The notes: generated by a model not told the origin, from the letters alone. A stretch of 64,000 nucleotides of DNA from an uncultured Bacilli bacterium (GCA_948479395.1 CAOLUI010000002.1:1282-65281); one strand, 5' to 3'; positions 29,777 through 57,745 are shown, counted from the first letter of the stretch. Numbers and translations are program-made.

Positions 29777-31756
29777 ATGGAGTTAAAGGATTTAAAAAAA
29801 GTTGGGCCCAAAACAATAGAGTGTTTAAATAAATTAAATATTTATTCTATTGATGATTTAATTTTTTATTATCCTTATCGATATAATATTTATAAACCAG
29901 TTGATATTATAAAAGAAGATTTAACAGATACCATAACAATTAATGCTGTAATTGAGTCAATTCCTAAAATTGTTTATATAAGAAAAAATTTAAATCGTAT
30001 TTCTTTTCAAGCCTTAACGAATAATTTAGTGATTAATGTATCGATTTTTAATAGGGCTTTTTTAAGTTCTAATTTAAAAGTAGGAAAAAATATAATTCTA
30101 ATTGGAAGATATGAAAGAAAAAAAAATAATTTTGTAGCTAGTGATTTGAAATTTGGTTGGATTAAAGATTTAAAAATTGAGCCAGTTTATCATGTTATTA
30201 AGGGTTTAAAAAATACTAATTTAAATTCTTATATTGTAGAAGCTTTAAAAAATAAGCAGGAAGTTGTAGACTATGTTCCAGATTATTTAAATAATGCTTA
30301 TAATTTTATAGAAAAAAAAGAAGCGTTGGATTTTATTCATCAACCTTGTAATTTTGAACAAATAAAAAAAGCTAAGTTAAAGTTAATTTATGAAGAATTG
30401 TTTTTATTTATGTTAAAAATAAATTTTTTAAAAGTGGATAATGAAAAAATAAAAGGGTTACCTCGAAATTTTGATATGGAAAAAGTAAATGATTTTATAG
30501 ATAATTTACCATTTTTATTAACTCTTGATCAACAAAAAGCGATAATTGATTGTTTAAATGATCTAAGGAGTCAAAAAAGAATGAACCGATTAGTTCAAGG
30601 GGACGTAGGAAGTGGTAAAACTATTGTATCTATTGTTGTAATGTATGCTAATGCTTTGAGTGCTTATCAAAGTGCTTTAATGGCACCTACAGAAATTTTA
30701 GCAATTCAACATTATGAAAATATCAAAAAGTTGATGGGTATTTATAATATTAAAGTAGCTCTTTTAGTAGGAAATCAGAAGAAAAGTGAACGAAAGGAAA
30801 TCTTAGAAAAATTACAACGTGGTGAAATAGATATTATTATTGGAACTCATGCTTTAATTAGTGATAATGTCGAGTTTAAAAATTTGGGATTAGTTGTTAC
30901 AGATGAACAACATCGTTTTGGAGTAAATCAAAGAAATAATTTACATAATAAAGGGGTAAAACCAGATATTATTTATATGAGTGCCACACCTATTCCACGT
31001 ACTTATGCACTTACTATATATAACGATATGGATACTAGTATTATTAAAACAAAACCAAGCGGTAGAAAAGAAATTAAAACTTTTTTGAAAAAGGAAAGTG
31101 AATTGAAAGATGTTTTAAAGGAAATTTTAAAGGAAATTAAAAAGGGTCATCAAATTTATGTAGTTGCTCCAGCTATTAATGAAGAAAATGAAGAGGTGTG
31201 GAATGTCAATGCTTTAAAGAAAAGTTTTGATAAAGCTTTTTTGGAAAATGTTAAAATAAGTATATTACATGGTAAAATGAAGGCTCAAGAGAAAGAAGAA
31301 ATAATGCAAGCATTTAAAGCAGGAGAGATTAAAATTTTGATTGCCACAACTGTTATCGAGGTTGGTGTAGATGTTAAAAATGCCACAACCATTGTTATTT
31401 TTAATGCTGAAAGATATGGACTAGCTACATTACATCAATTACGGGGAAGAGTGGGAAGGAATGAAATAGATTCTTATTGTTATTTGATTAGTAATAAAGA
31501 TGTAGATCGCTTAAAAGTTTTGGAACAAAGTAATGATGGTTTTTATATTAGCGAACAAGATTTTTTGATGAGACGAGAAGGGGATTTATTTGGAACAAGA
31601 CAAAGTGGGGATATGGTATTTAAAATTGCGGATTTAAGAAAGGATTTTAAAATTCTTTTACAAGCTAAAAAAGATAGTGAAAAATTTTTAAAAGAAGGAA
31701 ATCATAAAGAGGCAAAATATATGAATATCTTGAATAATATTACTACTATTGATTAA
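29777..31756 (+). CDS. recG: ATP-dependent DNA helicase RecG
   Basis: Walker A GDVGSGKT and DEQHRFGV box, with an N-terminal wedge domain; 659 aa. Confidence 0.9.
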   Translation: MELKDLKKVGPKTIECLNKLNIYSIDDLIFYYPYRYNIYKPVDIIKEDLTDTITINAVIESIPKIVYIRKNLNRISFQALTNNLVINVSIFNRAFLSSNLKVGKNIILIGRYERKKNNFVASDLKFGWIKDLKIEPVYHVIKGLKNTNLNSYIVEALKNKQEVVDYVPDYLNNAYNFIEKKEALDFIHQPCNFEQIKKAKLKLIYEELFLFMLKINFLKVDNEKIKGLPRNFDMEKVNDFIDNLPFLLTLDQQKAIIDCLNDLRSQKRMNRLVQGDVGSGKTIVSIVVMYANALSAYQSALMAPTEILAIQHYENIKKLMGIYNIKVALLVGNQKKSERKEILEKLQRGEIDIIIGTHALISDNVEFKNLGLVVTDEQHRFGVNQRNNLHNKGVKPDIIYMSATPIPRTYALTIYNDMDTSIIKTKPSGRKEIKTFLKKESELKDVLKEILKEIKKGHQIYVVAPAINEENEEVWNVNALKKSFDKAFLENVKISILHGKMKAQEKEEIMQAFKAGEIKILIATTVIEVGVDVKNATTIVIFNAERYGLATLHQLRGRVGRNEIDSYCYLISNKDVDRLKVLEQSNDGFYISEQDFLMRREGDLFGTRQSGDMVFKIADLRKDFKILLQAKKDSEKFLKEGNHKEAKYMNILNNITTID

Positions 31757-32647: not shown

Positions 32648-33793
32648 CTAACTACCAAAATCGACTATCGTAGGTTGAGGACAAGTTAGTTTATTTATAG
32701 TATTTACTGCATCACTAAGTTTATCTTTGAACATGTGAGTGTAGGTATCTAAGGTTTCTTCGATGGATGCATGACCTAAGAATTGAGATACAACTGCTAT
32801 ATTAGCATTGTTATTTATTAGTAAAGATGCACAACTGTGTCTAAAGTCATGTAATCTTATTCTTTTGATATTAGCATTTCTAGCAATTTCTATGTTCTTA
32901 TGCCTCATTTGATAGAAAGTTATAGGAATGAAATTTCCAAATATAAACCATTCATCATCAAACTCAGCAAATTGTTTCTGTTCTTCATATAATTGTTTTA
33001 AATCTCTAAAAAGAATTTCAGCAATAGGTAAAACCCTGTTGCTTTTTTGCGTTTTAGGTTTGGTTAATTCATAGTAGGTGGAATTTTCAGAGCCATGAGT
33101 TACTGCTTGTTTGGTAACTGATAATCTTTTATCACTCCAATTAACATCTTTCCATTGTAAGCCTCTAGCTTCACCTCTGCGAAGTCCGCAATAATATAAA
33201 GTTTCATACATACACTTAATTTGTAAGTTAGGTGCAGAAGATATAAATTGATTAAATTCTTCTAAAGTATAAAAGTCCATTTCTTTTTTTATATCTGATG
33301 CCGAAGTAAAAGGTTCCATTCTCCCATAAAACTTATTCATATTGAATCCATAGGTTTTAACAGCCCAATTAATGACTATCTTTAAAAACTTCTGAATTTC
33401 ATTTTTATAACTATTTGAAATGTCTACTTTCATCATTTCAGCTCTCCATTTTTGATAATGAATAGCATCCATATCTTTTAATTTAACTTTATCAAACATT
33501 CCAATATACTTAATTCTATCTCGATAAGTTTTTAAGGTAGAGTATCTTACAATATCTTTTTGAACCTCATAATATTTAGTGTATAACTCTTTGAAGGTCA
33601 TATTCATATCACCTTCAAAGACCTCAGACATTTTTAAATATTCTTTTTCAGCACGCTTGGCTTCTGCTTCCGTTTTGTATGCTTTAGAAAACTTTTTGCG
33701 TTTTTTGCCATCCAAACCGGTCTCCCAAACATACCAAATATATTTTCGACCATCTTTGGTCCATTTCTTTTCTTCTAATAGTCTAACTGCCAT
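32648..33793 (-). CDS. int: Tyrosine site-specific integrase (IME module 1)
   Basis: C-terminal catalytic box HDFRHSCASLLI...LGHASIEETLDTYTHMF (R..HxxR..Y), plus an N-terminal SAM-like domain. Confidence 0.9.
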   Translation of the reverse strand: MAVRLLEEKKWTKDGRKYIWYVWETGLDGKKRKKFSKAYKTEAEAKRAEKEYLKMSEVFEGDMNMTFKELYTKYYEVQKDIVRYSTLKTYRDRIKYIGMFDKVKLKDMDAIHYQKWRAEMMKVDISNSYKNEIQKFLKIVINWAVKTYGFNMNKFYGRMEPFTSASDIKKEMDFYTLEEFNQFISSAPNLQIKCMYETLYYCGLRRGEARGLQWKDVNWSDKRLSVTKQAVTHGSENSTYYELTKPKTQKSNRVLPIAEILFRDLKQLYEEQKQFAEFDDEWFIFGNFIPITFYQMRHKNIEIARNANIKRIRLHDFRHSCASLLINNNANIAVVSQFLGHASIEETLDTYTHMFKDKLSDAVNTINKLTCPQPTIVDFGS

Positions 33794-33888
33794 TATAATT
33801 CCTCCTTTGCTTAGTTTAGACTATTCACGCACTTCAATTGGTAGTTTACCATATTTAGTAGTGTTCTCCAATAGAAGTGCTGATAGTT

Positions 33889-35367
33889 CTATCTTTCTAT
33901 TTCAAAATCCTCTTTATTTTTATTGTTTTTACCATAATAACCATGATTAATAGCATCTGCTATAACTTCATAATCTTCTAATCTTTCTTTAGGCTTATCT
34001 CGTTTTAATACTTTGTCTATTGCCTTACACATTTTTTGGAATAGATTTTTCCACTTATTAACTTCGGTTTCTAATTTAGATTTTAAACTCTCAATATTAT
34101 TATTCAAAATATCTACTAATTCACTTAATTTACTAATTTCCTCTTTTTGCTCTTGGATAGTAGATTTTTGCTCTTTAATAATCTCGTTTCTTTTTAGGAG
34201 TTCTTTATTGTTTTTAAAAGTCTTATTTTCTTCAGTCAGTTTATTTATTTCTATATCTTTATTGGTATTATCAGTAGATAAGATAATTATCTTATGCTCT
34301 AAGCCTCTTGTGTACTTTATGAATCTAAGAACATCATCATCTTTATATCCACCAAATTTTCTTTTAACAGGATTTAAAATTTCTTTGTTACTATCATTAT
34401 TTTCGATATTTTTAAGCCCATTTTTAGAGTTTTCTATAATCTTTAAGGTATTTTCCTTTTCTTTGTTTAATTCTTCTAATTCGGCTTTTTTCTCTGCTAT
34501 ATCGTAATCTAATTTAGTTTGATTTTCTTTATTACTTCCAATATCTCCACGATAGAGATTAAATCCTTTTTCAGTAATAAACTTATTGAAGTCATTTTGC
34601 ATTTGATGAAAAGATATTTTGCCACCTCTATCTTTCCAAAATTGATCACAATTCAAGAAGTTACCTTTGACTTCTTCATATACAATTTTTCCTTTATCAT
34701 CACGAAGTAATTTTGGATTAATAGTAGTAATACCTTTTTTATTTGTTGTTTCTTCTTTTACAACATTACCATTAGCATCTTTTACAAAGCACTTCCTTTT
34801 AACTTTTCTAACAACAGGAACAAAATAGGCTTGTAGGTGAGGTGTATCTTCATCATAATGAATTTGAGCAAGAAGTATATTTTCTTCACCTACATAGTTC
34901 TTTAAAAACTCCATACAGGAATCAAAAAAGTAAGTTACAGCATTTGGTATATCTTCCTTTGATTTTATAACAGGAATCATTACAGCTTGTCCTTTTTTAT
35001 CTCCTGTATGATAAGTTCTACCACTATCTTTAAATTTCATTCCAAGTGCTTGAAAAAACTCAGGACCACTTGTGAATGTTACACCATTTAATAGATTAGT
35101 GTTAGGTCTATCTAGATATTCAATTTTTCTATCCTTTAACTTCTTTTTGACTTCTTGATATAAGTTGTTTTGAGTAAGAGATACATATTCATAATTAAAT
35201 TCTCTTCGTTCAATATCATAATTTCCTGTACCTTTTCTATCCTTCATTTCAACACCGATATTATAAAGGTCTGCTTTCTTATATTGGGTTACTACTCGTA
35301 CTACTTGTTTGCCATCATACAATTTTTTATCCTCCTTTGCTTCTGTGTCTTTAGTAGTAGAGGTCAT
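33889..35367 (-). CDS. mob: MobV-family (Mob_Pre / MobM-like) mobilization relaxase (module 1)
   Basis: HxDExxPHxH motif (HYDEDTPHLQAYF) and an N-terminal relaxase fold, with a long coiled-coil C-terminus. Confidence 0.8.
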   Translation of the reverse strand: MTSTTKDTEAKEDKKLYDGKQVVRVVTQYKKADLYNIGVEMKDRKGTGNYDIERREFNYEYVSLTQNNLYQEVKKKLKDRKIEYLDRPNTNLLNGVTFTSGPEFFQALGMKFKDSGRTYHTGDKKGQAVMIPVIKSKEDIPNAVTYFFDSCMEFLKNYVGEENILLAQIHYDEDTPHLQAYFVPVVRKVKRKCFVKDANGNVVKEETTNKKGITTINPKLLRDDKGKIVYEEVKGNFLNCDQFWKDRGGKISFHQMQNDFNKFITEKGFNLYRGDIGSNKENQTKLDYDIAEKKAELEELNKEKENTLKIIENSKNGLKNIENNDSNKEILNPVKRKFGGYKDDDVLRFIKYTRGLEHKIIILSTDNTNKDIEINKLTEENKTFKNNKELLKRNEIIKEQKSTIQEQKEEISKLSELVDILNNNIESLKSKLETEVNKWKNLFQKMCKAIDKVLKRDKPKERLEDYEVIADAINHGYYGKNNKNKEDFEIER

Positions 35368-35379
35368 TTATTGACCTAT

Positions 35380-35440
35380 CTCACTAGGGCATAGCCCAAT
35401 CGTCAGTTTAAGGGTTCACCCTTAAAAATCCCAAAATAAT
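35380..35440 (-). other. Candidate oriT of module 1
   Basis: Block tgacctatctcactagggcatagcccaatcgt, identical to the one upstream of the second mob gene. It contains the gggc-ata-gccc inverted repeat and is followed by the perfect palindrome ttaagggt-tc-acccttaa. Confidence 0.5.
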
Positions 35441-35502
35441 CACTATCGCCACTTTCATTGCTTTGCAACAAAACGTGCCTCGTTCTTATTTTTAGAAGAT
35501 GA

Positions 35503-36459
35503 TTATTCATCATCTTCGAGGTTAGGTTCTTCATATATACAATGATAAATTCTTTTATCACTTGTTCTGCTCTTAGTTATATAAAGTCCTTCTCTTTGTA
35601 ATAAATCCATATTTGCATTTATCATTCTTCCGAATCGTAATGCTGTTGTTTTTAATTTAGCATCATGAATTATACTAGTAGGAGTAAATTCAAAGTCTTT
35701 CTTTAACGATACATATTTGATAAAGAGTATTAAGTTCTCATCAAGTTCATCATCTTCAACAGGATTACTTATTTTAAAGGTTTGATTTTCGTTTCTTTTT
35801 AAATCCATATCAAATCCAGGAAAATCTCTATTAATTACTTTCATAATTAAATGATTATGGTCATTTCTAGTTTCAAACAAAGTTATTTTCCCATCTATAC
35901 AAGCATCAAAAGCTGTACTACCTAATGTTTCATTTCTTTTATTTAAGTGATGTGTAAATAATATTGTGAGATTATATTTCTCACATAATTCTCTTAACTT
36001 AGGTATTAACTTTTGTGCTACATCTTGAAAATCATTTATATCGTAAGAGATACCTAAATCCATATCTTTAAGCATATCAATGATTACTAATTTATTTGCT
36101 GTTTTATCACCTGAAAAATCATCAATCTCTTCTTCATGGTCAAGTATGCTTATATTAGGTTTTCCATCTCTATCTATAATGAATAAAGAATCCTTTTTTG
36201 GAGTTAGACCTAGTGTTTTATAGCGGTCCTGTAATTGACCAAAATCGGACTCTGTGCTAATATATAAGACAGGTGATGGAATTACTTTGTGTCCTAAAAA
36301 TGGTAATCCATTGGTAAGACAGTAGGAAAGTTGCAGTGCCAACATAGACTTTCCTACTTTAGGTTTTGATACAAGTAAATAAACACCTTTAGACCTCATT
36401 AATCCTTCGATTATGATGTCTTTTTTTGTGCTTGTATCTAATTCTTCAATTAGTTTCAT
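35503..36459 (-). CDS. AAA_25/RepA-like P-loop ATPase (putative replication or helicase-loader protein of the IME)
   Basis: Walker A SKPKVGKSM and Walker B LVIIDM; paralogous to 45794..46741. Confidence 0.6.
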   Translation of the reverse strand: MKLIEELDTSTKKDIIIEGLMRSKGVYLLVSKPKVGKSMLALQLSYCLTNGLPFLGHKVIPSPVLYISTESDFGQLQDRYKTLGLTPKKDSLFIIDRDGKPNISILDHEEEIDDFSGDKTANKLVIIDMLKDMDLGISYDINDFQDVAQKLIPKLRELCEKYNLTILFTHHLNKRNETLGSTAFDACIDGKITLFETRNDHNHLIMKVINRDFPGFDMDLKRNENQTFKISNPVEDDELDENLILFIKYVSLKKDFEFTPTSIIHDAKLKTTALRFGRMINANMDLLQREGLYITKSRTSDKRIYHCIYEEPNLEDDE

Positions 36460-36806: not shown

Positions 36807-36863
36807 TATGATATAATGAATTTGGGATGATATTATACCCTAATAAACGAAGGAGTATTTTAT

Positions 36864-37388
36864 ATGGATAAAGAACTTACTTTAAAAGCTTTAATAGAAG
36901 GTGGAAGAGATGTAAAGAATTTTTCTCAAAGAGAACTAGCAAGAAGAATCGGTTTGAGTAATACATCTTTAAATGATCTTGAAAATGGAAAAGTTAAAAA
37001 GCCTGATATAGAGGTATTAAGAAAGATTGCTGAAGAACTTGATTTATCTTTAGAACAATTATTAAAAGCAGCAGGATATGATGCTTTAACAAATTGGTTT
37101 TCTAATGATGAATTTAAAAATAAATCTTCTAGAGATTTAAAAAATATTATTAAAGAAGCAAGAATTTTTAAATATGATATTTTGGATTGGGATAGCAATA
37201 AAAGAGAAGTAGCTAGACATGTAATGGAAAACTTAGATAGAGTAGCATACAAATTAGAACTAATAAGAGATAATAAAGGAATAAATTATACATTAGATCA
37301 AGCAATAGAAGATATTAAAGAATCGTTAAAAGATTTAGAAGATGTTGCTAAAAAATATGATTATAGCAAATTGCCTAAAGATGTGTAG
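36864..37388 (+). CDS. XRE-family HTH transcriptional regulator (module 1)
   Basis: HTH motif QRELARRIGLSNTSLNDLENGK. Confidence 0.75.
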   Translation: MDKELTLKALIEGGRDVKNFSQRELARRIGLSNTSLNDLENGKVKKPDIEVLRKIAEELDLSLEQLLKAAGYDALTNWFSNDEFKNKSSRDLKNIIKEARIFKYDILDWDSNKREVARHVMENLDRVAYKLELIRDNKGINYTLDQAIEDIKESLKDLEDVAKKYDYSKLPKDV

Positions 37389-39811: not shown

Positions 39812-40159
39812 ATGAAAAAAGAGAAATTAGTTAGTGAATTTAATAAGATAAATGCTGGTAGCAATTTAAATGAGATTCAAAAATATATTACTAAAATGAT
39901 GGATGTAAATAGCTTTAACAATACACCTTTAGAATTGTTTTGTTACTTAACTGAAGAAGTTGGAGAATTAGCAAAAGAAATTAGAAAAACAGAAAAAAAT
40001 ATGGATATGGATATAAAAAAAGAATATGAATCTTGTTTAAAACATGAAATAGCAGATGTATTTATATATTTATTGGCAATATGTAATTCATATAATATAG
40101 ATCTTTTAGAAGCTTTTAAAGATAAAGAAAAGATTAATTTGGATAGAGTTTGGAAGTAA
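39812..40159 (+). CDS. MazG-like nucleotide pyrophosphohydrolase
   Basis: EEVGELAKEI...EIADVFIYLLAI is a typical MazG EExxE/D helix pair. Confidence 0.65.
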   Translation: MKKEKLVSEFNKINAGSNLNEIQKYITKMMDVNSFNNTPLELFCYLTEEVGELAKEIRKTEKNMDMDIKKEYESCLKHEIADVFIYLLAICNSYNIDLLEAFKDKEKINLDRVWK

Positions 40160-40890
40160 AAAAGAGAGTTGATAGAATGACTAAAAGCAAAACTTTTTCA
40201 GATAGTGTTCTAGAATTTAATGAATGGTTGGCTAATATATCTTTAGATTTATTTGATAATTATAGCATTAGTAACCCATTTAATGGTAAAAACAAAGAAC
40301 AAATAAAAATGATAACAAATGCATTTTATAAGAAATATTATAATGACAATAATAAAAGATATTTAATACTAGGTAGTTCACCAGCAAGAAAAGGCACAGC
40401 TACAACAGGTATTCCATTTGAAGATGCAAGTCATCTTTATAAAGAAACTGGTATTATGATTGATGACTTTTATATAAATAAATCATCTTCGGATTTTTTG
40501 TATGATGTTATGGCACAATATGGCGGTTGCGAAAAGTTTTATAAGAATTTTTTTATGAGTTTTGTATGTCCATTAGGGATAGTAAATATAAACTCAAAAG
40601 GAAATGAAGTTAATTCAAATTATTATGAAAATAAAAAATTAGAGAATTTTCTCTACAATTTTATTGTTGATTCTTTAAAAAAACAGATTTCTTTTGGAAT
40701 TGATACATCAATATGTTATTGCATAGGAAGTGGAGAAAATTTTAAATTCTTAACAAAAATTAACAATCAATATAAATTATTTGATAAGATTATTGCTTTA
40801 GAACATCCAAGATTTATTATGCAATATAATTCAAAGGATAGGAATAAATATTTGAATAAATACATTAATGCTTTTAATAATAGGAAATAA
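40150..40890 (+). CDS. Uracil-DNA glycosylase superfamily-like protein (family unclear)
   Basis: LILGSSPARKGTATTGIPF resembles UDG motif A (G-x-x-P-G) and LEHPRF resembles motif B (HPS). The assignment is weak. Confidence 0.3.
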   Translation: MEVKKRVDRMTKSKTFSDSVLEFNEWLANISLDLFDNYSISNPFNGKNKEQIKMITNAFYKKYYNDNNKRYLILGSSPARKGTATTGIPFEDASHLYKETGIMIDDFYINKSSSDFLYDVMAQYGGCEKFYKNFFMSFVCPLGIVNINSKGNEVNSNYYENKKLENFLYNFIVDSLKKQISFGIDTSICYCIGSGENFKFLTKINNQYKLFDKIIALEHPRFIMQYNSKDRNKYLNKYINAFNNRK

Positions 40891-41126
40891 AGTAATAAAA
40901 ATTCTTCATAAACAATTGAAATAGGTAAAAATTTATCAAAAAGAATTAAAAATAAAAAAGGAGTAGAATATTTGAGAATAGATATACTCATAATGTTTCT
41001 AACTACCTTTTCAACTACCAAAATTTTAAAATTCATATAATACTTGTTAAATTTAAGTATTTTAAATCCTATTAAAATAAAGGTAAAAGTATTTAAATAA
41101 ACTTTGAAGTGCGTGAACTCTAACCG

Positions 41127-41158
41127 CCCCCTGAAGGAGCGCATAGCGCTCCATTTTT
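41127..41158 (+). repeat. Partial copy of the sRNA 3' end / att-like motif (CCCCCTGAAG plus GC hairpin plus T-run)
   Basis: aagtgcgtgaactctaaccgCCCCCTGAAGgagcgcatagcgctccattttt aligns with 32528-32590. Confidence 0.5.
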
Positions 41159-41272
41159 GTTTATTTATAAGGATTTGCTCATTTCAAAAAATGCTTTAGG
41201 TAATAATTAGGTAATATTTTTTAAAAATTATATATAAAATTTCTATAAACACTTAAAAAAATTGCCAAAATA

Positions 41273-41281
41273 TGGTATAAT
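41273..41281 (+). promoter_or_regulatory. Extended -10 promoter (TGgTATAAT) driving the retron-like ncRNA
   Basis: tggtataat lies immediately upstream of the structured region. Confidence 0.45.
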
Positions 41282-41287
41282 TTATTT

Positions 41288-41545
41288 GTACTTAGAAGCA
41301 GATAATAGCTTTATTTTGTACAATCAATACGGTGTAAGTCCGTGGAACTCTTTTTATGGGAGTATTAGCATTGCTATACGCAATAGCTAGGTAATGATAT
41401 GGAGTCCTTGTGGTTCGCTTGCAGACAAGCTGCAGCTCACCTACAAGTACTAGCCATACATGACGTAATTTGCCAAGTATATGGAGATTAATTAAGAATT
41501 CAGGTCGCTGCTTGCCCCTTTGTATTAATATATTGTATTTTTGTA
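41288..41545 (+). ncRNA. Candidate retron msr-msd-like (or DRT-type) structured ncRNA
   Basis: About 260 nt of non-coding sequence between a promoter and an RBS. It has local GC enrichment and several stem-loops: gctat-acgca-atagc, gcttg-caga-caagc, the gctgcagc palindrome, and an outer cttgtgg / cctacaag stem. It lies directly upstream of a reverse transcriptase. Confidence 0.5.
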
Positions 41546-41559
41546 AAGGAGGTAGGTCT

Positions 41560-41757
41560 ATGAAGAAAAAAGATAAACAAAAAGTTACGATTATTTTCGT
41601 AGTATTAGCATTTAGCTTTTTATTTGTAGTGAAGGTTTTGAATTTAAATTTATCTGAAACATTGTTAAGTTTAAGTTTTATAGGACTTTTAAAAGTCGCT
41701 TTAGAAAATTTTCCTAATGGGGAAGCCCTTCTAACGAAGCTGAGTATTATCACTTAA
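41560..41757 (+). CDS. Small transmembrane protein (~65 aa), candidate retron accessory/effector protein
   Basis: ATG preceded by the strong RBS aaggagg; MKKKDKQK followed by hydrophobic helices. The track ORF 41470..41757 probably over-extends upstream into the ncRNA. Confidence 0.45.
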   Translation: MKKKDKQKVTIIFVVLAFSFLFVVKVLNLNLSETLLSLSFIGLLKVALENFPNGEALLTKLSIIT

Positions 41758-41805
41758 TTAATTGCTGATATATGCTTGGCGTTTTTACGTTTTGGAGATG
41801 ATATT

Positions 41806-42972
41806 ATGAAAACAAAGATAAAAAATACAGAATCAATTTTATATAACAGAGGTAATAAAAAACTTGTGGCTGATTTATTGTCAGATAAGAAAAATAATAT
41901 AATTTTTACTAAAAACGATTTAAATAATATTATATATAAGTATGACAAAAAAGGAATTGTATTTTTTGAAAATAAAAAAACAAAAAGAAGATATAAGAAA
42001 ATGCCAAAAGATTATTCTCCAAAAAAGTATAGAAAATTTACTGATGTATTAGAACCACGTAAAACAGCATTAAAAAGATTAAATAAATATTTGTCCGAAC
42101 TAAAAATACCAAACTATGTTTTTGCAAAAACAGATGGTGGATATGTAAAAAATGCAAGATTTCATAAAGGAAATGTTAATTTTTTATTGATTGATATAGC
42201 TAGCTTTTATCCAAATTGTAAATTTAAAGATGTAAAATGCTTTTTTATGTCTGGTGGAGGATTTAGAATGAAAAATGATTTGGCACAAAGAATGGCTGAA
42301 TTAGTAACAGTACCAGAAAAATCAAATCCTAAAGTTAGGGTTATACCACAAGGATTCTCGACTAGTACATTAATAAGTTTTTTTGCTTATAAAAAAATGT
42401 TTGCAGAATTAAACAAACTAGCATTAGATAATAATTTAGCTTTTAGTACATATGTTGATGATGTAACATTTTCTACAAATGATAAAAATTTTGATTTTAA
42501 TAATATATTAGATAAAATAGATGCAATTTTAAAAACGTATGGTCACCAAAGAAAGGTAGAAAAAACTCAAATATGTTTATTGGATAATGGTAAATGTCCT
42601 ACCATAACTGGAATATGGATTAAAAGACATAAGGTAAGAGCTTCATCAAAAATGTATAAAAAATTAATATATAATTATAGATGGTTAACTTCAAATCCTA
42701 TCATAAATTCTGAGAGTTATTTAAGTTCTTGGAAGCATTTTGTTTCTTTAAACGGATTGTTAAATACTATTGATTATATCGAACCTATAACTCGTCAAAA
42801 AAGGGATTATATTAGAAAATATGTTGATGAGCACAAAAAACATTATTTACTAAATTTATCACCATATACAAAAAAATATAATAGTAATTATTGGAGAGGC
42901 AAGTTTTACAGTGCTTATTTAAGTGATAATTTAGAAGAATTTTATTTGGCAAATAAAGATAAATTAAAATAA
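41806..42972 (+). CDS. Retron-type / defence-associated reverse transcriptase
   Basis: RT motifs FLLIDIASFYPN (motif A-like), IPQGFSTSTLIS (motif B'), STYVDDVTFS (YxDD catalytic) and a retron-like VTG-type motif (PTITGIWIK). 389 aa with no maturase or endonuclease domains. The ATG at 41806 has a ggaga RBS; the track start at 41776 is a TTG. Confidence 0.75.
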   Translation: MKTKIKNTESILYNRGNKKLVADLLSDKKNNIIFTKNDLNNIIYKYDKKGIVFFENKKTKRRYKKMPKDYSPKKYRKFTDVLEPRKTALKRLNKYLSELKIPNYVFAKTDGGYVKNARFHKGNVNFLLIDIASFYPNCKFKDVKCFFMSGGGFRMKNDLAQRMAELVTVPEKSNPKVRVIPQGFSTSTLISFFAYKKMFAELNKLALDNNLAFSTYVDDVTFSTNDKNFDFNNILDKIDAILKTYGHQRKVEKTQICLLDNGKCPTITGIWIKRHKVRASSKMYKKLIYNYRWLTSNPIINSESYLSSWKHFVSLNGLLNTIDYIEPITRQKRDYIRKYVDEHKKHYLLNLSPYTKKYNSNYWRGKFYSAYLSDNLEEFYLANKDKLK

Positions 42973-42976
42973 AAAA

Positions 42977-43008
42977 AGTGGTAAGCTCCTTTGAACTTAC
43001 CATTTTTA
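42977..43008 (+). terminator. Rho-independent terminator after the RT gene
   Basis: tggtaagctcctttgaacttacca stem-loop followed by ttttta. Confidence 0.55.
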
Positions 43009-43013
43009 TGTGC

Positions 43014-44069
43014 TTAAATATCTATTTCTAAATCTTCATCTATAATGTCATTTTCTATAAGATTTTCTTCTTTTATGCGTTTAGCATTTTGGTTAATTAA
43101 CTTTACAATATCTTCTAATTTATTTTGATACATATGAGAATAAGTATTTAGTGTTTCATCTATTTTAGTGTGTCCTAGATATTTTGCTACTAAAGTAATA
43201 CTAGCACCATAATTAATTAAGAATGAAGCACAAGAATGTCTAAAATCATGTACTCTAATTTGTTTAACTCCTGCTTCTTTACAATTAGCATTTTTTCTTC
43301 TTCTAATTGTATCTTTATGAATAGGAAGATCATTTCCAAAAACATACCACTCTTGACTAAAATTTTGATATTGTTTTTGACTATTATATAACTTTTCTAA
43401 ATCTTCTAATAGAATATCATTGATAGGTAAATCTCTGTTGCTATTTTTAGTTTTTAAAGGACTCAATCTATAATTATCAATACTATAAATAGATGGAATT
43501 TGTTTATAAATTTTCATCATTTTATTATTAAAATCAATGTCTTTCCATTGTAGTCCACGAAGTTCACCTTTACGAAGCCCCATATAATATAATGTTTCAA
43601 ATAAAGGTCTAAATAATATATCATTTTCTACTGATATAAATTTATTAAACTCTTCGATAGTAAAAAATTCCATTTCTTTCTTTAATTCGTTTGGATTAGT
43701 AAAATTAGTCATTTTGTTGTACATGGGAGCAAAGTTAAAATCATACCATCTTGTACCAAAATTTAATATTGCTTTTACAAATTTAAATAAATCATTTTTA
43801 TAAGAAGTGGCAAGAGGTAATTTATTAATTTCCTTTTTCCACAATTCAAAATGTTTAATATTCATTTCTCGTAATTTAATTTTATCAAATAATTCTAAAT
43901 ATTTAATTCTATCTCTATAAGTTTTTATAGTGCTTTCTCTAACCTTATCACTTTGGTATTCATAAAATGTTAAATATAAATCTTTAAAAGTCATATCTCT
44001 ATGATTAATTGTTTGATCTAGTGATAACAAAAATTGTCTTTCTGCTTCTTGAGCTTCTTTTTTAGTCAT
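43014..44069 (-). CDS. int: Tyrosine site-specific integrase (IME module 2)
   Basis: VHDFRHSCASFLI...LGHTKIDETLNTYSHMY; paralog of 32648..33793. Confidence 0.9.
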   Translation of the reverse strand: MTKKEAQEAERQFLLSLDQTINHRDMTFKDLYLTFYEYQSDKVRESTIKTYRDRIKYLELFDKIKLREMNIKHFELWKKEINKLPLATSYKNDLFKFVKAILNFGTRWYDFNFAPMYNKMTNFTNPNELKKEMEFFTIEEFNKFISVENDILFRPLFETLYYMGLRKGELRGLQWKDIDFNNKMMKIYKQIPSIYSIDNYRLSPLKTKNSNRDLPINDILLEDLEKLYNSQKQYQNFSQEWYVFGNDLPIHKDTIRRRKNANCKEAGVKQIRVHDFRHSCASFLINYGASITLVAKYLGHTKIDETLNTYSHMYQNKLEDIVKLINQNAKRIKEENLIENDIIDEDLEIDI

Positions 44070-44204
44070 ATATTTTTTAGAACGATATAATTTATTTACA
44101 CCATCTAAACCTTTGTAATAAGTAGAAAAGTACCATTTTCTACCATCCTTAGTTTGTTCTTTTGCTTTTGCTTGAAAAATTGCTATAAAACATCACCCTT
44201 TCTT

Positions 44205-45647
44205 TTATATTTCAATTTCATAATCACCTTTGTCTTTTATTTCGTTTTTATCATAATCATAATAATCGTTATTTATTGCATCTACTATATCTTCATAATC
44301 CTCTAATTTTTCTTTGGGTTTATCTCGTTTTAATAATTTATCTATTGCCTTACACATTTTTTTGAATAGACTTTTCCACTTATTAACTTCAGTTTCTAGT
44401 TTAGATTTTAGACTTTCAATATTGTTATTTAATATATCTACCAATTCACTTAATTTATTAATTTCTTCTTTTTGATCTTGAATAGTAGATTTTTGTTCTT
44501 TAATAATTTCATTCCTTTTTAGGAGTTCCTTATTGTTTTTAAAAGTCTTATTTTCTTCAGTCAGTTTATTTATTTCAATATCTTTATTAGCATTATCTGT
44601 AGATAAGATTATTATTTTATGCTCTAAGCCACGAGTATATTTTATGATTCTAAAAACATCTTCTTCTTTATAGCCACCAAATTTCCTTTTAACAGGATTT
44701 AAAAGTTCTTTATTACTATTATTATTTTCAATGTTTTTAAGACCATTTTTAGAGTTTTCTATAATCTTTAAGGTATTTTCCCTTTCTTTATTTAATTCTT
44801 CTAATTCAGCTTTTTTCTCGGCTATATCATAGTCTAATTTAGTTTGGTTTTCTTTATTAGCTCCTATATCACCACGATAAAGATTAAATCCTTTTTCCGT
44901 AATAAACTTATTGAAGTCATTTTGCATTTGGTGAAAAGATAGCTTACCACCCTTATCTTTCCAAAATTGATCGTTATTTAAAAAGTTACCTTCAATTTCA
45001 TCATAGATGATTTTTCCTTTGTCATCACGAAGTAATTTAGAAACTATAGAAGTAGTACCATCTTTCTTTTTTACTTCTTCTTTGATAATATTTTCATTTT
45101 TATCTTTTACAAAACATTTCCTTTTAACTTTATTAACAACAGGAATAAAATAGGCTTGCAAGTGTGGAGTATCTTCATCATAATGAACCTGAGCGAAAAG
45201 TATATTTTCTTCACCTACATAATTCTTTAAAAACTCTATACAACAGTCAAAAAAGTAGGTAACAGCATTTGGTATATCTTCTTTTGATTCTATAATGGGA
45301 ATCATTACTGCTTGTCCTTTTTTATCTCCTGTATGATAAGTTCTGCCACTATCTTTAAATTTCATTCCAAGTGATTGGAAAAACTCAGGTCCACTTGTAA
45401 ATATTACACCGTTTAATAGATTAGTATTAGGTCTATCTAGATATTCAATTTTTCTTTTCTTTAAAGTCGTTTTTACTTCTTGATATAAATTTGGTTGTTG
45501 AAGTGAAACATATTCGTAGTTATATATTGTTCTTTCAATATCGTAATTACCTGTACCTTTTCTTTTATTCATTTCAACTCCAATATTATAAAGATCATCT
45601 TTCTTATATTGAGTTTCTACTCGTACTACTTGTTTGCCATCATACAA
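44205..45647 (-). CDS. mob: MobV-family relaxase (module 2)
   Basis: HYDEDTPHLQAYF motif; very similar to 33889..35367 along its whole length. Confidence 0.8.
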   Translation of the reverse strand: MYDGKQVVRVETQYKKDDLYNIGVEMNKRKGTGNYDIERTIYNYEYVSLQQPNLYQEVKTTLKKRKIEYLDRPNTNLLNGVIFTSGPEFFQSLGMKFKDSGRTYHTGDKKGQAVMIPIIESKEDIPNAVTYFFDCCIEFLKNYVGEENILFAQVHYDEDTPHLQAYFIPVVNKVKRKCFVKDKNENIIKEEVKKKDGTTSIVSKLLRDDKGKIIYDEIEGNFLNNDQFWKDKGGKLSFHQMQNDFNKFITEKGFNLYRGDIGANKENQTKLDYDIAEKKAELEELNKERENTLKIIENSKNGLKNIENNNSNKELLNPVKRKFGGYKEEDVFRIIKYTRGLEHKIIILSTDNANKDIEINKLTEENKTFKNNKELLKRNEIIKEQKSTIQDQKEEINKLSELVDILNNNIESLKSKLETEVNKWKSLFKKMCKAIDKLLKRDKPKEKLEDYEDIVDAINNDYYDYDKNEIKDKGDYEIEI

Positions 45648-45679
45648 TTTTTATCCTCCTTTGCTTATGTTTCTTTAGT

Positions 45680-45745
45680 AGTAGAGGTCATTTATGACCT
45701 ATCTCACTAGGGCATAGCCCAATCGTGAGTTTAGGGACACGTCCC
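45680..45745 (-). other. Candidate oriT of module 2
   Basis: Same 32-bp block as module 1 (tgacctatctcactagggcatagcccaatcgt), followed by the palindrome tagggac-ac-gtcccta. Confidence 0.5.
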
Positions 45746-45793
45746 TAAAAACCCTGAATATTTTTTGTTCGCAAAAAATATATAATATAAATA

Positions 45794-46741
45794 TTAATAA
45801 TTAATCATAGGTTCTTCATATCTTGCAATATAAACTCTTTCATTAGATGTTCTTTTCTTTGTGATATGCAAACCTTCTTTTTCTAAAGTAATTAAATTAT
45901 TATTTAGTAGCTTACCAAATACTGATGGTTGTATCATTAAACCTAATGTACTGGTAATTTCAGATATAGTAAAAGAGAATTCTTTTTTCTTAATAGCATA
46001 ATTCAAAAATATTTTTAACTCGTTACTTAATTCTTCAATTTCCTCATTAACTACTTCAAATATTAAATTCTCTTTTCTTTTTAAAATAAAATCTCGACTT
46101 TCATAATCTCGACTTTGATAATTAAAATAAATTTTATCTTTTAAATTATTATCTAATTTTAAAGTGATAATTCCATCTACAGCACCATCAATAGCAGTAC
46201 TACCTAATGTAGTATTTGTTTTATTTAGATGATGAAGTAACAATACAGTAATTCCATACTTAGAGCATAATTTTCTATATTTAGGTAATACTATTTGTGC
46301 CATATCTTGGTAATTATATAAGTCAAATTTATCATTTATATAAACTCCATTAAACATATCAATTATTACAAACTTACCTTGATTGATATTAGCAAATTCA
46401 CTAATCTTTTCTTCTAAATCATCTAGGTTTAATTTCTTTTTATCTGATTCTTGTTCTATTAAAAAGAAATTGCTATTAAACTCTAAACTCATTTTCTTAA
46501 TACGATCAGCAATTTGCGAAGAATCCATTTCTGTGCTAATATATAAGACAGGTGATGGATTTACTTTAAATCCTAAAAATATTGTTCCTGTTGCAATAGC
46601 ATGAGCAAGTTGTAGAGCTAATAATGACTTGCCCACTTTAGGACGAGCAACTAAACAATATAAGCCATTAGATTTCATAAGACTATCAACTATGAAATCT
46701 TTTTTTGTGCAATTATTTAGTATTTCATTAATTGTTTTCAA
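45794..46741 (-). CDS. AAA_25/RepA-like P-loop ATPase (module 2)
   Basis: ARPKVGKSLLALQL Walker A and IIDMF Walker B; paralog of 35503..36459. Confidence 0.6.
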   Translation of the reverse strand: MKTINEILNNCTKKDFIVDSLMKSNGLYCLVARPKVGKSLLALQLAHAIATGTIFLGFKVNPSPVLYISTEMDSSQIADRIKKMSLEFNSNFFLIEQESDKKKLNLDDLEEKISEFANINQGKFVIIDMFNGVYINDKFDLYNYQDMAQIVLPKYRKLCSKYGITVLLLHHLNKTNTTLGSTAIDGAVDGIITLKLDNNLKDKIYFNYQSRDYESRDFILKRKENLIFEVVNEEIEELSNELKIFLNYAIKKKEFSFTISEITSTLGLMIQPSVFGKLLNNNLITLEKEGLHITKKRTSNERVYIARYEEPMINY

Positions 46742-47140: not shown

Positions 47141-47157
47141 GTTCAAAATAGTATATA

Positions 47158-47706
47158 ATGAATATACGAGGTGTTTTTATGGAAGATCAAACTGTTGGTA
47201 TGTTAATAACAGAAGCTAGAGAGAAAAAAGGAATATCAAAAAATCAACTAGCAGAGTTATGTGGTGTAAGTCATACTGAAATAGCAAGAATTGAATCTGG
47301 AGAACGAGAAGTACCAAATCCTAAAACTTTAAGAAAGATAAGTAAATATATAGATGTAAACTTTAATGAATTAATGTATGCTGCTGGATTAGGTTTACAG
47401 CTTGGCCCTGAAAGTTCTTTATTAAAAGAATATCATTCTAGTTTAAGAGGTCCAAAATTAAAAGAAGCATTGGTAAATGCTTTCTGTAGTTTACAAAACT
47501 GTAATAAATTTGAAGAATTTTTAAAAAAGAAGTTAGAAGATAAAAAGTTATCAGAAGAAGAAAAAGAAATTGTTAGACAAACAAAAGAAGATAATTTTTA
47601 TCAAATTCTTACTATTTACGAAACTATAAACCAATTACAAAAAGCTTTAAGACATGAAAAAGTTGAGAATACTGATGAAGATAGTTTATTAGAAAATGAC
47701 AAATGA
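47158..47706 (+). CDS. XRE-family HTH transcriptional regulator (module 2)
   Basis: HTH motif QLAELCGVSHTEIARIESGER. Confidence 0.7.
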   Translation: MNIRGVFMEDQTVGMLITEAREKKGISKNQLAELCGVSHTEIARIESGEREVPNPKTLRKISKYIDVNFNELMYAAGLGLQLGPESSLLKEYHSSLRGPKLKEALVNAFCSLQNCNKFEEFLKKKLEDKKLSEEEKEIVRQTKEDNFYQILTIYETINQLQKALRHEKVENTDEDSLLENDK

Positions 47707-51613: not shown

Positions 51614-51772
51614 TTAGTTAATTAAAAATTAAAATTTTAGGTAATAATTAGGTATTAAAATTCTAGATTTTTATTAAAATTTTCTAATTATTATTAATTA
51701 AAAATAAGCAAAATTAAACTAAAAATAAGGGAAAAGTGAAAAATTGTTTCAAAAAGAACTGAAAAAATTTCG

Positions 51773-57688: not shown

Positions 57689-57745
57689 ATTTATTTAATA
57701 TTTAATGAAAAAAATGCTATAATAAAAGATATTGGAAGGATTTTT

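Follow-up and report, generated by a model that had tools for sequence, protein, structure and literature searches.

Type VI retrons are the newest mechanistic retron class, and in them a small-protein (SP) toxin is encoded inside a hybrid RNA (hyRNA). In Retron-Vpa2 of Vibrio parahaemolyticus (Zhang et al., bioRxiv 10.1101/2025.10.22.683967) translation of the SP toxin is repressed in the hyRNA, and msDNA, a copy of the hyRNA's long stem-loop, lifts this repression; a dead reverse transcriptase (RT) is not toxic, and the authors propose a 7-nt direct repeat, present in the msd and riboregulator loops, as the msDNA docking site. A toxin within a hybrid RNA is also found in Retron-Sen3 (cl2075; Garcia-Rodriguez et al., bioRxiv 10.64898/2026.04.27.721009). 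The two studies disagree on the accompanying HTH protein: in Vpa2 it binds RT and hyRNA and represses reverse transcription, in Sen3 it is a protein antitoxin that forms a toxin–antitoxin pair with the SP. Type IV retrons (e.g. Retron-Eco6/Ec48) have RTs of the same clade 3 (Mestre et al., 2020, PMC7736814); their effector, a small membrane protein without identifiable domain, has two TM helices, and its gene is not part of the ncRNA but follows or overlaps that of the RT.

The window analysed here is a stretch of 64,000 nt from an uncultured Bacilli bacterium (GCA_948479395.1, CAOLUI010000002.1:1282-65281). Its region 41127-43008 holds a real, self-contained retron cassette on a mobilizable island. 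The order on the + strand is promoter, ~270 nt of GC-enriched structured ncRNA, a 65-aa ORF (SP), a 388-aa RT gene and a terminator (Table 1); each of these had been listed by a sequence-only reading of the window and was found where that reading placed it. Its central call, a retron-type unit and not a group II intron or DGR, is borne out by RT profiles and a fold search, and the sequence comparisons support a unit of structured ncRNA, small predicted membrane protein and RT. The same reading had seen no obvious match to a well-characterized retron; this has to be revised, as the unit has the RT clade and the RNA layout of Type VI retrons. It stands apart from the described Type VI systems in having no HTH gene and a small protein of membrane type. 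The first nucleotides of the region (41127-41160) are a terminator-like hairpin of the upstream UDG-family gene with one copy of a repeated motif, and lie outside the retron proper.

Table 1. Features of the retron cassette (positions counted from the first nucleotide of the window).
Feature	Position	Strand	Remarks
Promoter	41253-41281	+	-35 TTAAAA (41253-41258), 17-nt spacer, TG-extended -10 (TGgTATAAT; TG 41273-41274, TATAAT 41276-41281)
Predicted transcription start	~41287-41289	+	Prediction
5' RNA domain, msr-like	41287-41390	+	P1 stem-loop and three hairpins, MFE fold
P1 stem-loop	41287-41291/41318-41322 and 41295-41299/41308-41312	+	Near-invariant loop GAUAAUAG
5'-domain hairpins	41328-41344, 41347-41363, 41365-41390	+	MFE fold
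Long 68-nt hairpin, candidate msd	41394-41461	+	Recovered by RNAalifold
IR1, 5' arm of long-range stem	41462-41507	+	GACGUAA, UGCCAAGUAUAUG, GAUUAAUUAAG, AUUCAGGUCG; pairs with 41735-41791
Anti-Shine-Dalgarno (anti-SD) segment	41510-41522	+	GCUUGCCCCUUUG
SP, small ORF	41560-41757	+	65 aa; Shine-Dalgarno (SD) AAAGGAGG at 41545-41552, 7 nt 5' of ATG
IR2, 3' arm of long-range stem	41735-41791	+	Overlaps last SP codons and stop (41755-41757)
Retron RT	41806-42972	+	388 aa; Type VI profile clade; YVDD encoded at 42451-42462
Intrinsic terminator, possibly bidirectional	42979-43002	.	10-pair stem common to RT and convergent integrase gene

The RT has 388 residues from its ATG, one fewer than the 389 first counted, and the YVDD, QGFSTS and TITG motifs noted earlier are in place. 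NARFH (residues 116-120), QGFSTS (182-187), YVDD (216-219) and TITG (266-269) all occupy invariant or near-invariant columns. NAxxH, YxDD and xTG are motifs typical of retron RTs, and NAxxH, YVDD and xTG are invariant here. The RT has 87 homologues. RVT_1 (2.6e-12) is the only Pfam match and there is no maturase or endonuclease domain in Pfam, in agreement with the sequence-only reading. The best PADLOC profile is RT_VI (7.6e-49), at 164.5 bits vs 85.5 bits for the next type; it is also best for the clade relatives tested (159-238 bits), and among the best 25 of 35 PADLOC matches all are retron RT models. Profile searches of the PDB return retron RTs at 2e-21 to 6e-9, the sole non-retron match being a group II maturase RT at 2.5e-5. 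The AF2 model has a pLDDT of 90.8, and the top 18 Foldseek matches in the PDB are all retron RTs (E = 1e-14 to 1e-10, as against 1e-9 to 1e-6 for DRT2, group II, DGR and AbiK enzymes). The Type VI signature blocks DIxSF[YF]PNC, PQGxxTS and S.YVDD are present. Judged by profile, then, the RT belongs to the Type VI group within clade 3, which answers the typing that the earlier reading had asked for; its identity with a proteobacterial Type VI RT (L031, Psychrobacter) is only ~26%, and NCBIfam retron models match it only below cut-off (89 bits vs 235).

Signs of other RT classes were looked for, namely placement of the RT with group II introns or DGRs, a VR/TR repeat pair and intron RNA, and none was found. 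A group II intron was rejected on the missing maturase domain, the lack of any Rfam intron match including at E<=10 and the maturase RT match of only 2.5e-5, a DGR on the lack of a TR/VR pair in 40000-44200, where there are merely short AT-rich chance repeats. A Type IV retron was likewise rejected: the putative effector lies upstream, within the RNA, an integrase gene lies downstream, and RT_IV is absent among the best 25 of 35 matches.

Transcription would start from a promoter with 10/12 consensus matches, the top-scoring + strand site of the region in a consensus scan, although promoter-like sites overall are no commoner than expected for AT-rich DNA (17 found vs 18.6). The extended -10 element, which had been called at 41273, is present, and its TGnTAnAAT box stands at the identical aligned position in ~15/17 related loci. 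Nucleotide homology with other loci begins at 41214-41286 and ends at 42974-42979. The GC content, described before as unusually rich for the non-coding stretch, is indeed 0.34-0.43 across 41300-41500 vs ~0.16-0.25 in the flanks. The predicted terminator after the RT, a 10-pair stem with T-runs, separates the stop codons of the RT and integrase genes. In the terminator scan it is a - strand hit with its T-run; on the + strand TTTTT follows the stem, so it could work in both directions.

The RNA 41282-41800 has an MFE of -145.1 kcal/mol (z = -4.93), and 0/100 shuffles fold as well. The ncRNA had been delimited as 41288 to 41545; the structured RNA is predicted to begin at ~41288, but the functional RNA continues through SP to ~41791. 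In an alignment of 17 sequences from related lineages, 72.4% of cells pair vs 65.2% in shuffles (0/500 reach the observed value) and 41-46% with slid partners, and 103 pairs are changed on both sides where 73 are expected; because there are only 17 sequences, from related lineages, these shuffle statistics overstate significance. Several helices within the SP coding sequence are poorly supported (41-60% paired). Overall, the covariance analysis, which the sequence-only reading had proposed, favours a structured retron RNA with a covarying hairpin and a long-range stem across the 17 loci.

The 5' domain opens with the P1 stem-loop, in which the loop AAUA is invariant and all five pairs of the inner helix are changed on both sides (84.7% of cells paired). 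The last of the three following hairpins shows compensatory change in 7/10 pairs. Next comes the 68-nt hairpin. Its lower stem UUGUG/CUACAA is nearly invariant, its distal stem and tip vary yet still pair, and its core helix is paired in 97.3% of cells with 6/11 pairs compensatory. The complement of this hairpin folds as a DNA hairpin (-15.9 kcal/mol, z = -4.16). By analogy with Vpa2 we regard it as the candidate template for reverse transcription (msd). No Rfam family matches the window at gathering thresholds, and a search of 41200-41850 at E<=10 gives only noise.

A long-range stem formed by the inverted repeats IR1 and IR2 encloses the whole SP gene and is the best-supported helix in the covariation analysis. 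In its two central helices pairing reaches 90% and 98.4%, and 8/13 and 7/11 pairs have changed on both sides (15 compensatory pairs), as in GCCAAGUAUA/UAUGCUUGGC vs GCUAAAUGCG/CGCAUUUAGC. IR2 is conserved though largely non-coding, and its 3' end lies 2 nt before the RT Shine-Dalgarno GGAG (41794-41797). Strong as this inverted repeat around the SP gene is, there is no conserved G directly at the duplex end; the first G past IR2 falls within the RT Shine-Dalgarno, at variable distance, and no a1/a2 pair with adjacent priming G was assigned.

Between IR1 and the SP gene lies an anti-SD segment with two possible partners, the SP ribosome-binding site or codons at the SP 3' end (~41719-41726, GGGGAAGC). 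RNAduplex gives -11 to -23 kcal/mol for anti-SD:SD and -16 to -21 for anti-SD:CDS 3' end in 17/17 sequences. The partners are lineage-specific (CCCC/GGGG, GCCAUUCC/GGAAUGGC, UGUCACCUU/AAGGUGGCA, GACAUCCC/GGGAUGUC and GGUUAUCCC/GGGAUAAUC) and both alternative pairings covary across lineages. The two pairings are similar in predicted energy, the z-scores of individual duplexes being modest (-0.6 to -3.6). In the MFE fold of the window RNA the SP SD and AUG are both paired. The 7-nt direct repeats of the Vpa2 model have no counterpart in a k-mer search of the 17 sequences, where the 5' RNA domain and the SP ribosome-binding region have no 6- or 7-mer in common at consistent aligned positions. A few 6-mers are common to the long hairpin and the anti-SD region in 5/17 sequences, at differing positions and at about the frequency estimated for chance.

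SP is coding and hydrophobic. The small transmembrane ORF with its ribosome-binding site is as predicted from the sequence: 65 aa, with an SD 7 nt before the ATG. Past the K-rich N-terminus comes a hydrophobic helix (Kyte-Doolittle 17-residue maximum 2.92), predicted to be transmembrane at residues ~9-27, and a further helix is moderately hydrophobic. In 25/25 related loci the SP position holds an ORF of 60-74 aa, the homologues having Kyte-Doolittle 17-residue maxima of 1.8-3.3, and substitutions fall preferentially on codon position 3 (e.g. 1/1/11 and 1/3/14). SP has no Pfam, PADLOC or NCBIfam match; none of its 28 database homologues is named and none has a Pfam domain. Compared by sequence profiles, SP is unrelated to the known Type VI SP clusters, which are three-helix bundles of 75-79 aa with a hydrophobic C-terminal core; a distant relationship in fold is conceivable. 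By analogy SP is presumed to be the toxic effector of the cassette.

The Cro/C1-type HTH protein (cluster 2_1 / HTH_VI) whose gene lies upstream of, or overlaps, the RT gene in Type VI loci is absent. The 48 nt between SP and RT hold no ORF. In six-frame translations, an HMM of 5 HTH_VI proteins detects nothing near any retron of the clade; as a control, the HTH is found in loci L026 and L028-L034. Three generic XRE-type ORFs of the window (36831-37385, 47152-47703 and 57689-58444) were rejected as the HTH partner; the first two take equivalent positions in the two islands, in one of which no retron adjoins the ORF, and so are island regulators and not partners of the retron. Fusion of an HTH to the RT was rejected by inspection of the canonical RT sequences: the N-terminus is the usual retron region with a K-rich insertion of about a dozen residues, and the C-terminal ~60 residues appear, from the sequence and the AF2 model, to be helices continuing the thumb.

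The cassette nevertheless keeps what is characteristic of Type VI, an upstream SP inside an extended transcript (hyRNA) that a long-range inverted repeat closes. It resembles Vpa2 in RT profile clade and in a single transcript that combines a structured msr-msd-like 5' domain, a long stem-loop and the SP coding sequence, with a 3' end that folds back on the first domain via inverted repeats. In both, stems take in the start codon of SP and its ribosome-binding site, and the RNAs are alike in length (~470 nt in Vpa2, ~500 nt here). Unlike Vpa2, it has a low-GC Bacillota host, no HTH, none of the conserved 7-nt direct repeats (17 sequences), and an SP with a predicted N-terminal TM helix, the Vpa2 SP being soluble and helical with its hydrophobic helix at the C-terminus. 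As in Sen3, the 5' stem-loop is conserved, a long internal stem-loop is the candidate DNA template, and the SP gene is flanked by an IR1-IR2 stem with compensatory substitutions; in both, too, the ribosome-binding site of SP is sequestered and there are alternative conformations. It departs from Sen3 in having an SP of a different cluster and no antitoxin gene; the covariation of IR1-IR2, not significant according to the Sen3 paper (bioRxiv 10.64898/2026.04.27.721009), is here that of the best-supported helix. The small membrane protein without identifiable domain recalls the effector of Type IV retrons, but SP is encoded inside the RNA. In Psychrobacter Type VI loci with SP-HTH-RT the same RNA topology is predicted.

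The 25 related loci come from gut and rumen Bacillota MAGs. Only RNA, SP and RT are conserved across them; the flanks are otherwise unrelated, with no conserved neighbour gene <=5 kb on either side, and in some loci the neighbours are large unannotated ORFs. In the window, the cassette sits between two related integrase/Mob_Pre/AAA_25 elements, the junction of two mobile elements that had been proposed. A copy of an att site at the RT/integrase junction was rejected, the 26-nt junction hairpin being unique within the window. Carriage by phage was rejected too (relatives in IMG/VR are only 26-28% identical, those in GenBank phages <=26%). One relative lies on a mobilizable plasmid of the cultivable species E. 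faecalis (pKUB3007-4, NZ_AP018547.1, 29731-30958) beside a PemK/MazF toxin gene and a relaxase gene, where it is annotated just as a hypothetical protein and a reverse transcriptase family protein.

Since the HTH represses the RT in Vpa2 and is the antitoxin in Sen3, neither published circuit transfers directly to a locus without it, and only RNA and RT are left to control both the RT and the toxin. We favour, with moderate confidence and by analogy with Vpa2, a two-gene retron of the Type VI clade in which the RNA fold silences SP and msDNA made upon infection frees it. The single promoter would give a hybrid RNA of ~500 nt (~41288-41791), with the RT expressed by read-through. In this RNA the conserved stem-loops ending in the 68-nt hairpin make up the 5' half and the SP mRNA the 3' half. 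The SP coding sequence is locked in a long interrupted duplex between sequence just upstream of its ribosome-binding site and sequence around and past its stop, and the anti-SD segment can occlude the ribosome-binding site itself. In the uninfected cell the fold would hold SP translation off and little or no cDNA would accumulate. On phage infection, which we take as the probable trigger, the RT would copy the 68-nt hairpin into msDNA. Accumulation of msDNA, or engagement of the RT, would then move the anti-SD from the SD to the 3' end of the SP gene, the presumed direction of the switch, and SP would be translated, insert into the membrane and stop the cell (abortive infection). It is also conceivable, and we put this forward only tentatively, that this clade, together with its relatives from Paenibacillus, E. 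faecalis plasmids and other Bacillota, is a distinct retron subtype in which a bistable RNA switch, the anti-SD pairing with either the SD or the 3' end of the toxin ORF, replaces the HTH entirely.

The circuit could also run in reverse of Vpa2, with a constitutive RT-msDNA complex or cDNA-RNA hybrid silencing or neutralising SP until a factor from the phage sets the toxin free by degrading, modifying or titrating the msDNA or by blocking the RT. Most characterised retrons are described as following this logic; within Type VI, Sen3 makes ssDNA constitutively, with activation uncoupled from synthesis, and constitutive synthesis is plausible here since no HTH represses the RT. The fold geometry would even allow IR1 to be the primer-side arm and the 3' end of the SP mRNA the template, giving an antisense cDNA. 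The antitoxin of Sen3, however, is the HTH protein that this locus lacks, the conserved sequestration of SD and AUG together with the anti-SD toggle explain silencing without cDNA, and in Vpa2 a dead RT is not toxic; on this balance we consider constitutive msDNA unlikely.

The RNA fold invites comparison with type I toxin-antitoxin systems such as hok/sok, whose mRNA is silenced by an occluded SD and by pairing of distant 5' and 3' sequence on either side of a small hydrophobic toxin ORF. SP is like type I toxins in size and hydrophobicity, its ORF is likewise surrounded by fold-back pairing in the style of hok, and its SD can be occluded. The cassette might then be an addiction or stabilisation module of its island or plasmid in which the RT modulates the fate of the RNA and phage defence is secondary or absent; its place on an integrase/Mob_Pre island, and that of a relative on the mobilizable E. 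faecalis plasmid by PemK/MazF toxin and relaxase genes, would fit this. Unlike hok/sok, no antisense RNA antitoxin, nor a promoter for one, was identified here, and the RT is obligatorily linked and co-conserved. Many unrelated chromosomal contexts in which only RNA, SP and RT are kept, as for defence cassettes, and the anti-phage function described for every characterised member of the RT clade make an addiction module distinctly improbable. That the RT is of another class altogether (DRT/UG, Abi, group II intron or DGR) with an RNA unrelated to templating would suit the missing Rfam msr match, the sub-threshold NCBIfam scores and the unassigned a1/a2 pair and priming G, but is very hard to reconcile with the retron-only PADLOC matches among the best 25 of 35, PDB profile and fold rankings of retron RTs above group II, DRT2, DGR and AbiK, the lack of a maturase domain and TR/VR repeats, and an RNA architecture equal to that of Type VI loci, and we regard it as extremely improbable.

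If the more tentative reading of a distinct subtype with a bistable RNA switch is true, reverse transcription itself would flip a type I-toxin-like mRNA from off to on, and a single RT-bound hybrid RNA would serve as sensor, regulator and toxin mRNA of a minimal two-gene retron. That several Bacillota groups keep the layout of RT and toxin-in-RNA without an HTH suggests that RNA and RT may be enough to store the toxin safely and to release it, and the HTH-less lineage is a simpler system in which to separate RNA-level from protein-level control. At ~1.75 kb, the cassette is of a size that could suit retron-based tools in Gram-positive hosts. PADLOC flags its Type VI models for RT and HTH as components of a multi-gene system, and annotation requiring both RT and HTH would probably miss HTH-less cassettes; taken with the bare annotation of the plasmid relative, this means that retron defence in gut Bacillota may be under-counted.

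The window carries a retron cassette (Table) in which a promoter is followed by a structured RNA, a gene for a small protein (SP, the presumed toxic effector) and a reverse transcriptase (RT) gene. The promoter outscores all other + strand sites in the region; as a class, promoter-like sites show no enrichment in DNA this rich in AT. The ~270 nt 3' of it hold no credible ORF and have a GC content of 0.34-0.43, compared with ~0.2 in the surroundings. Antisense ORFs overlapping the retron (e.g. 41292-41753, - strand) lack independent conservation and are considered spurious.

Features of the retron and of the flanking mobile elements (window positions)
Feature	Position	Strand	Remarks
Core genes, first / second mobile element	32648-36459 / 43014-46741
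60-nt conserved blocks	35372-35431 and 45695-45754		just 5' of each mob gene
Terminator-like hairpin	41136-41152	+ (as read)	of the UDG-family gene 5' of the retron
Direct repeat, 19 nt	41195-41213 and 51636-51654		TTTAGGTAATAATTAGGTA; perfect
Retron promoter	41253-41281	+	TTAAAA, 17 nt, TGgTATAAT
Hairpin core	within 41394-41461		97.3% of cells paired; compensatory pairs 6/11
Long-range stem, segment 1	41471-41483 with 41769-41781		90% of cells paired; compensatory pairs 8/13
Long-range stem, segment 2	41486-41496 with 41753-41763		98.4% of cells paired; compensatory pairs 7/11
SP ribosome-binding site	41545-41552	+	AAAGGAGG; 7 nt 5' of the SP ATG
SP ORF	41560-41757	+	65 aa
RT ORF	41806-42972	+	388 aa; 48 nt 3' of the SP ORF
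Hairpin, 10 pairs	42979-43002	- (scan entry)	between the RT ORF and the convergent tyrosine-integrase gene; + strand read gives identical stem, then TTTTT

A database search identified 87 RT homologues at 35-92% identity. The 25 close loci lie in metagenome-assembled genomes from gut and rumen, whose labels are Bacilli, Erysipelotrichaceae, Mycoplasma, Tenericutes or Clostridia, and in Breznakia sp. PF5-3. An ORF of 60-74 aa stands immediately 5' of the RT in 25/25 loci, with no ORF between the two in any of them, and in a clustering of every ORF up to 5 kb from the RT, nothing recurred but the RT and the small ORF. Nucleotide similarity of other loci to the window begins at 41214-41286 and ends at 42974-42979; the cassette therefore extends from promoter to stop codon, ~1.75 kb. 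Judged by this conservation, the unit is RNA, SP and RT and nothing more, and the cassette is real and conserved; system-level annotation has probably missed it. One relative, L027 (CP091726.1, Bacilli bacterium chromosome, 5311-6942), is a pseudogenised cassette of the type seen at the related locus L016, with SP and an ncRNA-derived reading frame still recognisable and the RT split into at least five frameshifted ORFs.

By profile and structural model, the RT is a retron enzyme and falls in the Type VI group. Pfam reports RVT_1 alone, and matches to NCBIfam retron models stay below the cut-offs. The best PADLOC match is RT_VI (7.6e-49, 164.5 bits, residues 47-331), other retron types reaching at most ~85 bits among the matches listed. 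A PDB search with a 40-sequence RT profile returned retron RTs only at 2e-21 to 6e-9, followed by a group II maturase at 2.5e-5. In a Foldseek comparison of the confident AlphaFold2 model (pLDDT 90.8, pTM 0.82) with the PDB, the best 18 matches are retron RTs; DRT2, group II, DGR and AbiK enzymes rank behind. The NARFH, QGFSTS, YVDD and TITG motifs occupy invariant or near-invariant columns. Canonical Type VI loci recovered in the same scan (Alphaproteobacteria, Rikenella, Psychrobacter, Shewanella) share the blocks DIxSF[FY]PNC, PQGxxTS and S.Y[VI]DD with the window RT, which is 26% identical to one Psychrobacter Type VI enzyme (E = 6e-14). At 388 aa the window RT is longer than the canonical enzymes recovered (288-341 aa); the extra length is a K-rich insertion in the N-terminal region (residues ~40-75) and a helical C-terminal tail (331-388), both modelled with high confidence.

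The RNA (41282-41800) folds at -145.1 kcal/mol, against a shuffle mean of -114 ± 6 (z = -4.93). From a 17-sequence alignment, RNAalifold independently finds the core part of a long hairpin, and with it a long-range stem of 21 bp that pairs the region 3' of this hairpin (IR1) with the region 3' of the SP stop codon (IR2). With the window MFE structure projected on the alignment, 72.4% of cells are paired, compared with 65.2% in shuffles (0/500 reach 72.4%) and 41-46% with slid partners, and 103 pairs have changed on both sides where 73 are expected. Support is best for the hairpin core and the two segments of the long-range stem (Table). For example, GCCAAGUAUA/UAUGCUUGGC in the window is GCUAAAUGCG/CGCAUUUAGC in the L016 group. 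The loop of P1, the 5' stem-loop, is near-invariant (GAUAAUAG), and three short hairpins 3' of P1 show partial covariation. Helices within the SP coding region have weak support (41-60% paired), partly because MAFFT cannot align the divergent coding sequence. No Rfam family matches the whole window or the retron RNA region. These parts and conserved pairings of the retron are observed.

The RNA layout resembles those of known Type VI retrons. In the predicted folds of two Psychrobacter Type VI loci the order is the same (5' stem-loops, long hairpin, IR1, SP gene, IR2), with IR2 again immediately 5' of the ribosome-binding site of the next gene, and the layout also corresponds to the hybrid RNA described for Retron-Vpa2 (bioRxiv 10.1101/2025.10.22.683967) and the IR1-IR2 framework of Retron-Sen3 (bioRxiv 10.64898/2026.04.27.721009). 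Taken by RT profile and predicted RNA layout, the window retron belongs with Type VI.

Two features set it apart from that type, the first being SP itself. SP (MKKKDKQKVTIIFVVLAFSFLFVVKVLNLNLSETLLSLSFIGLLKVALENFPNGEALLTKLSIIT) is basic at its N-terminus and has two helices, one clearly of transmembrane type and the other moderately hydrophobic; the Kyte-Doolittle 17-residue maximum is 1.8-3.3 across all family members. Between close relatives, most substitutions fall at the third codon position (1/1/11 and 1/3/14), and SP is therefore translated. All 28 homologues found in the database are 65 aa long and have neither a name nor a Pfam domain. In the canonical Type VI loci recovered, the SPs have called lengths of 79-110 aa and, on inspection, are acidic and helical with a hydrophobic C-terminus; no sequence similarity to them was detectable in the window SP, which is of a different, predicted membrane kind. 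By analogy, the effector of Type IV retrons is closer to SP in presumed function, not in position.

The second feature is the missing HTH protein. Type VI is defined by association with a Cro/C1 HTH protein (Mestre et al. 2020, PMC7736814), and the window retron lacks this association. The canonical loci have the order SP-HTH-RT, their HTH matching PADLOC HTH_VI (1.2e-24). An HMM built from five HTH_VI proteins recovered the HTH in every canonical locus, as positive control, and found no match beside any retron of the window clade; in the window it matches only generic XRE-type ORFs (36831-37385, 47152-47703 and 57689-58444), the first two at equivalent sites in the two mobile elements. HTH is missing from ~22% of Type VI entries (bioRxiv 10.64898/2026.04.27.721009), and by term search neither the Sen3 nor the Vpa2 paper mentions systems without an HTH, members from Bacillota or a membrane SP. 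The published circuits depend on the HTH, which represses the RT in Vpa2 (bioRxiv 10.1101/2025.10.22.683967) and is the antitoxin in Sen3 (bioRxiv 10.64898/2026.04.27.721009). Because it is absent here, RNA and RT must carry the control; the K-rich insertion or the C-terminal tail of the RT could substitute for contacts usually made by the HTH.

In the window MFE fold the SP ribosome-binding site (SD) is paired with an anti-SD segment, GCUUGCCCCUUUG (41510-41522), and the SP AUG also lies inside a stem. SP codons close to the 3' end (GGGGAAGC, ~41719-41726) are complementary to this segment as well. By RNAduplex both pairings are available at similar energies in 17/17 sequences (-11 to -23 kcal/mol with the SD, -16 to -21 kcal/mol with the CDS 3' end); the partner was picked by energy in each sequence, and the count is therefore fitted to the idea. 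The paired sequences are lineage-specific at homologous positions (CCCC/GGGG, GCCAUUCC/GGAAUGGC, UGUCACCUU/AAGGUGGCA, GACAUCCC/GGGAUGUC and GGUUAUCCC/GGGAUAAUC), with modest individual duplex z-scores (-0.6 to -3.6). We read the anti-SD segment as a candidate bistable element of the predicted fold, in which either pairing may be the on-state.

By analogy, the window retron would work like Type VI retrons. On the Vpa2 model the RT would bind the hybrid RNA and use the long hairpin as cDNA template; the complement of this hairpin is predicted to fold stably, as a DNA hairpin of 68 nt (-15.9 kcal/mol, z = -4.16). Build-up of cDNA during infection would lift translational repression of SP, which would then harm the membrane and abort infection. 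No priming G could be assigned in the alignment and MFE fold, and a k-mer search of the 17 sequences found no Vpa2-type 7-nt repeat, the proposed msDNA docking site (bioRxiv 10.1101/2025.10.22.683967), at a consistent position. The opposite logic, with constitutive cDNA acting as antitoxin, may apply; either mechanism is drawn by analogy.

The retron lies between two tandem, related, diverged integrative mobilizable elements ~10.3 kb apart, whose copies are 70-100% identical in blocks. Each encodes a tyrosine integrase, a Mob_Pre relaxase and an AAA_25/RepA-like protein on the - strand, and an HTH-type regulator ORF, then cargo genes, on the + strand. The conserved block 5' of each mob gene could be an oriT. 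The retron follows the cargo genes that the first element carries (GATase, nitroreductase, GNAT, MazG, UDG); its distance to the integrase stop codon of the second element is 41 nt. Directly 5' of the retron, on the same strand, are the genes for a MazG-like nucleotide pyrophosphohydrolase and a UDG-superfamily protein (39812-40890), types sometimes tied to phage-host conflict. The 19-nt direct repeat flanks retron plus second element and may be the att pair of the latter, in which case the retron is cargo with attL on one side and the integrase gene on the other. The TAGGTAAT core of the repeat recurs inside the retron RNA (41388-41395). A motif, CCCCCTGAAG, with a GC-rich hairpin and a T-run after it, occurs on the + strand at 29574, 32546, 41127, 51773 and 53278 (one copy with 1 mismatch; count reached in 0/100 shuffles). 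The copies inspected (32546, 41127, 51773, 53278) are intergenic, at or near element and cargo boundaries, and the motif could be a repeated terminator module or recombination site.

The AAA_25-HTH-(cargo)-retron spacing is the same at three related loci (L003, L004, L018), and the cassette therefore travels with the island family of the window; ORF neighbourhoods of related loci place it in unrelated contexts too. Searches of viral contigs (IMG/VR; GenBank phages) yielded no close relative. HTH-less Bacillota RTs separate from HTH-bearing RTs in a rough midpoint-rooted NJ tree without outgroup or support values. The nearest outgroups are Paenibacillus marchantiophytorum, one metagenomic contig and a 36-kb mobilizable Enterococcus faecalis plasmid; in 3/3 a small hydrophobic or basic ORF overlaps an RT_VI-type RT without an HTH. 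On the plasmid, pKUB3007-4 (NZ_AP018547.1), retron L038 (record 29731-30958) comprises a hydrophobic protein of 93 aa, annotated 'hypothetical protein', whose gene overlaps that of a 'reverse transcriptase family protein' of 321 aa (RT_VI, 224 bits). An HTH gene is absent, a structured leader of ~500 nt lies 5' of the gene pair, and PemK/MazF toxin and MOBP relaxase genes adjoin. Among the matches listed for L038 are seven near-identical E. faecalis plasmids of 36.3 kb and one of 37.9 kb. L038 offers a cultivable model for the HTH-less subtype.
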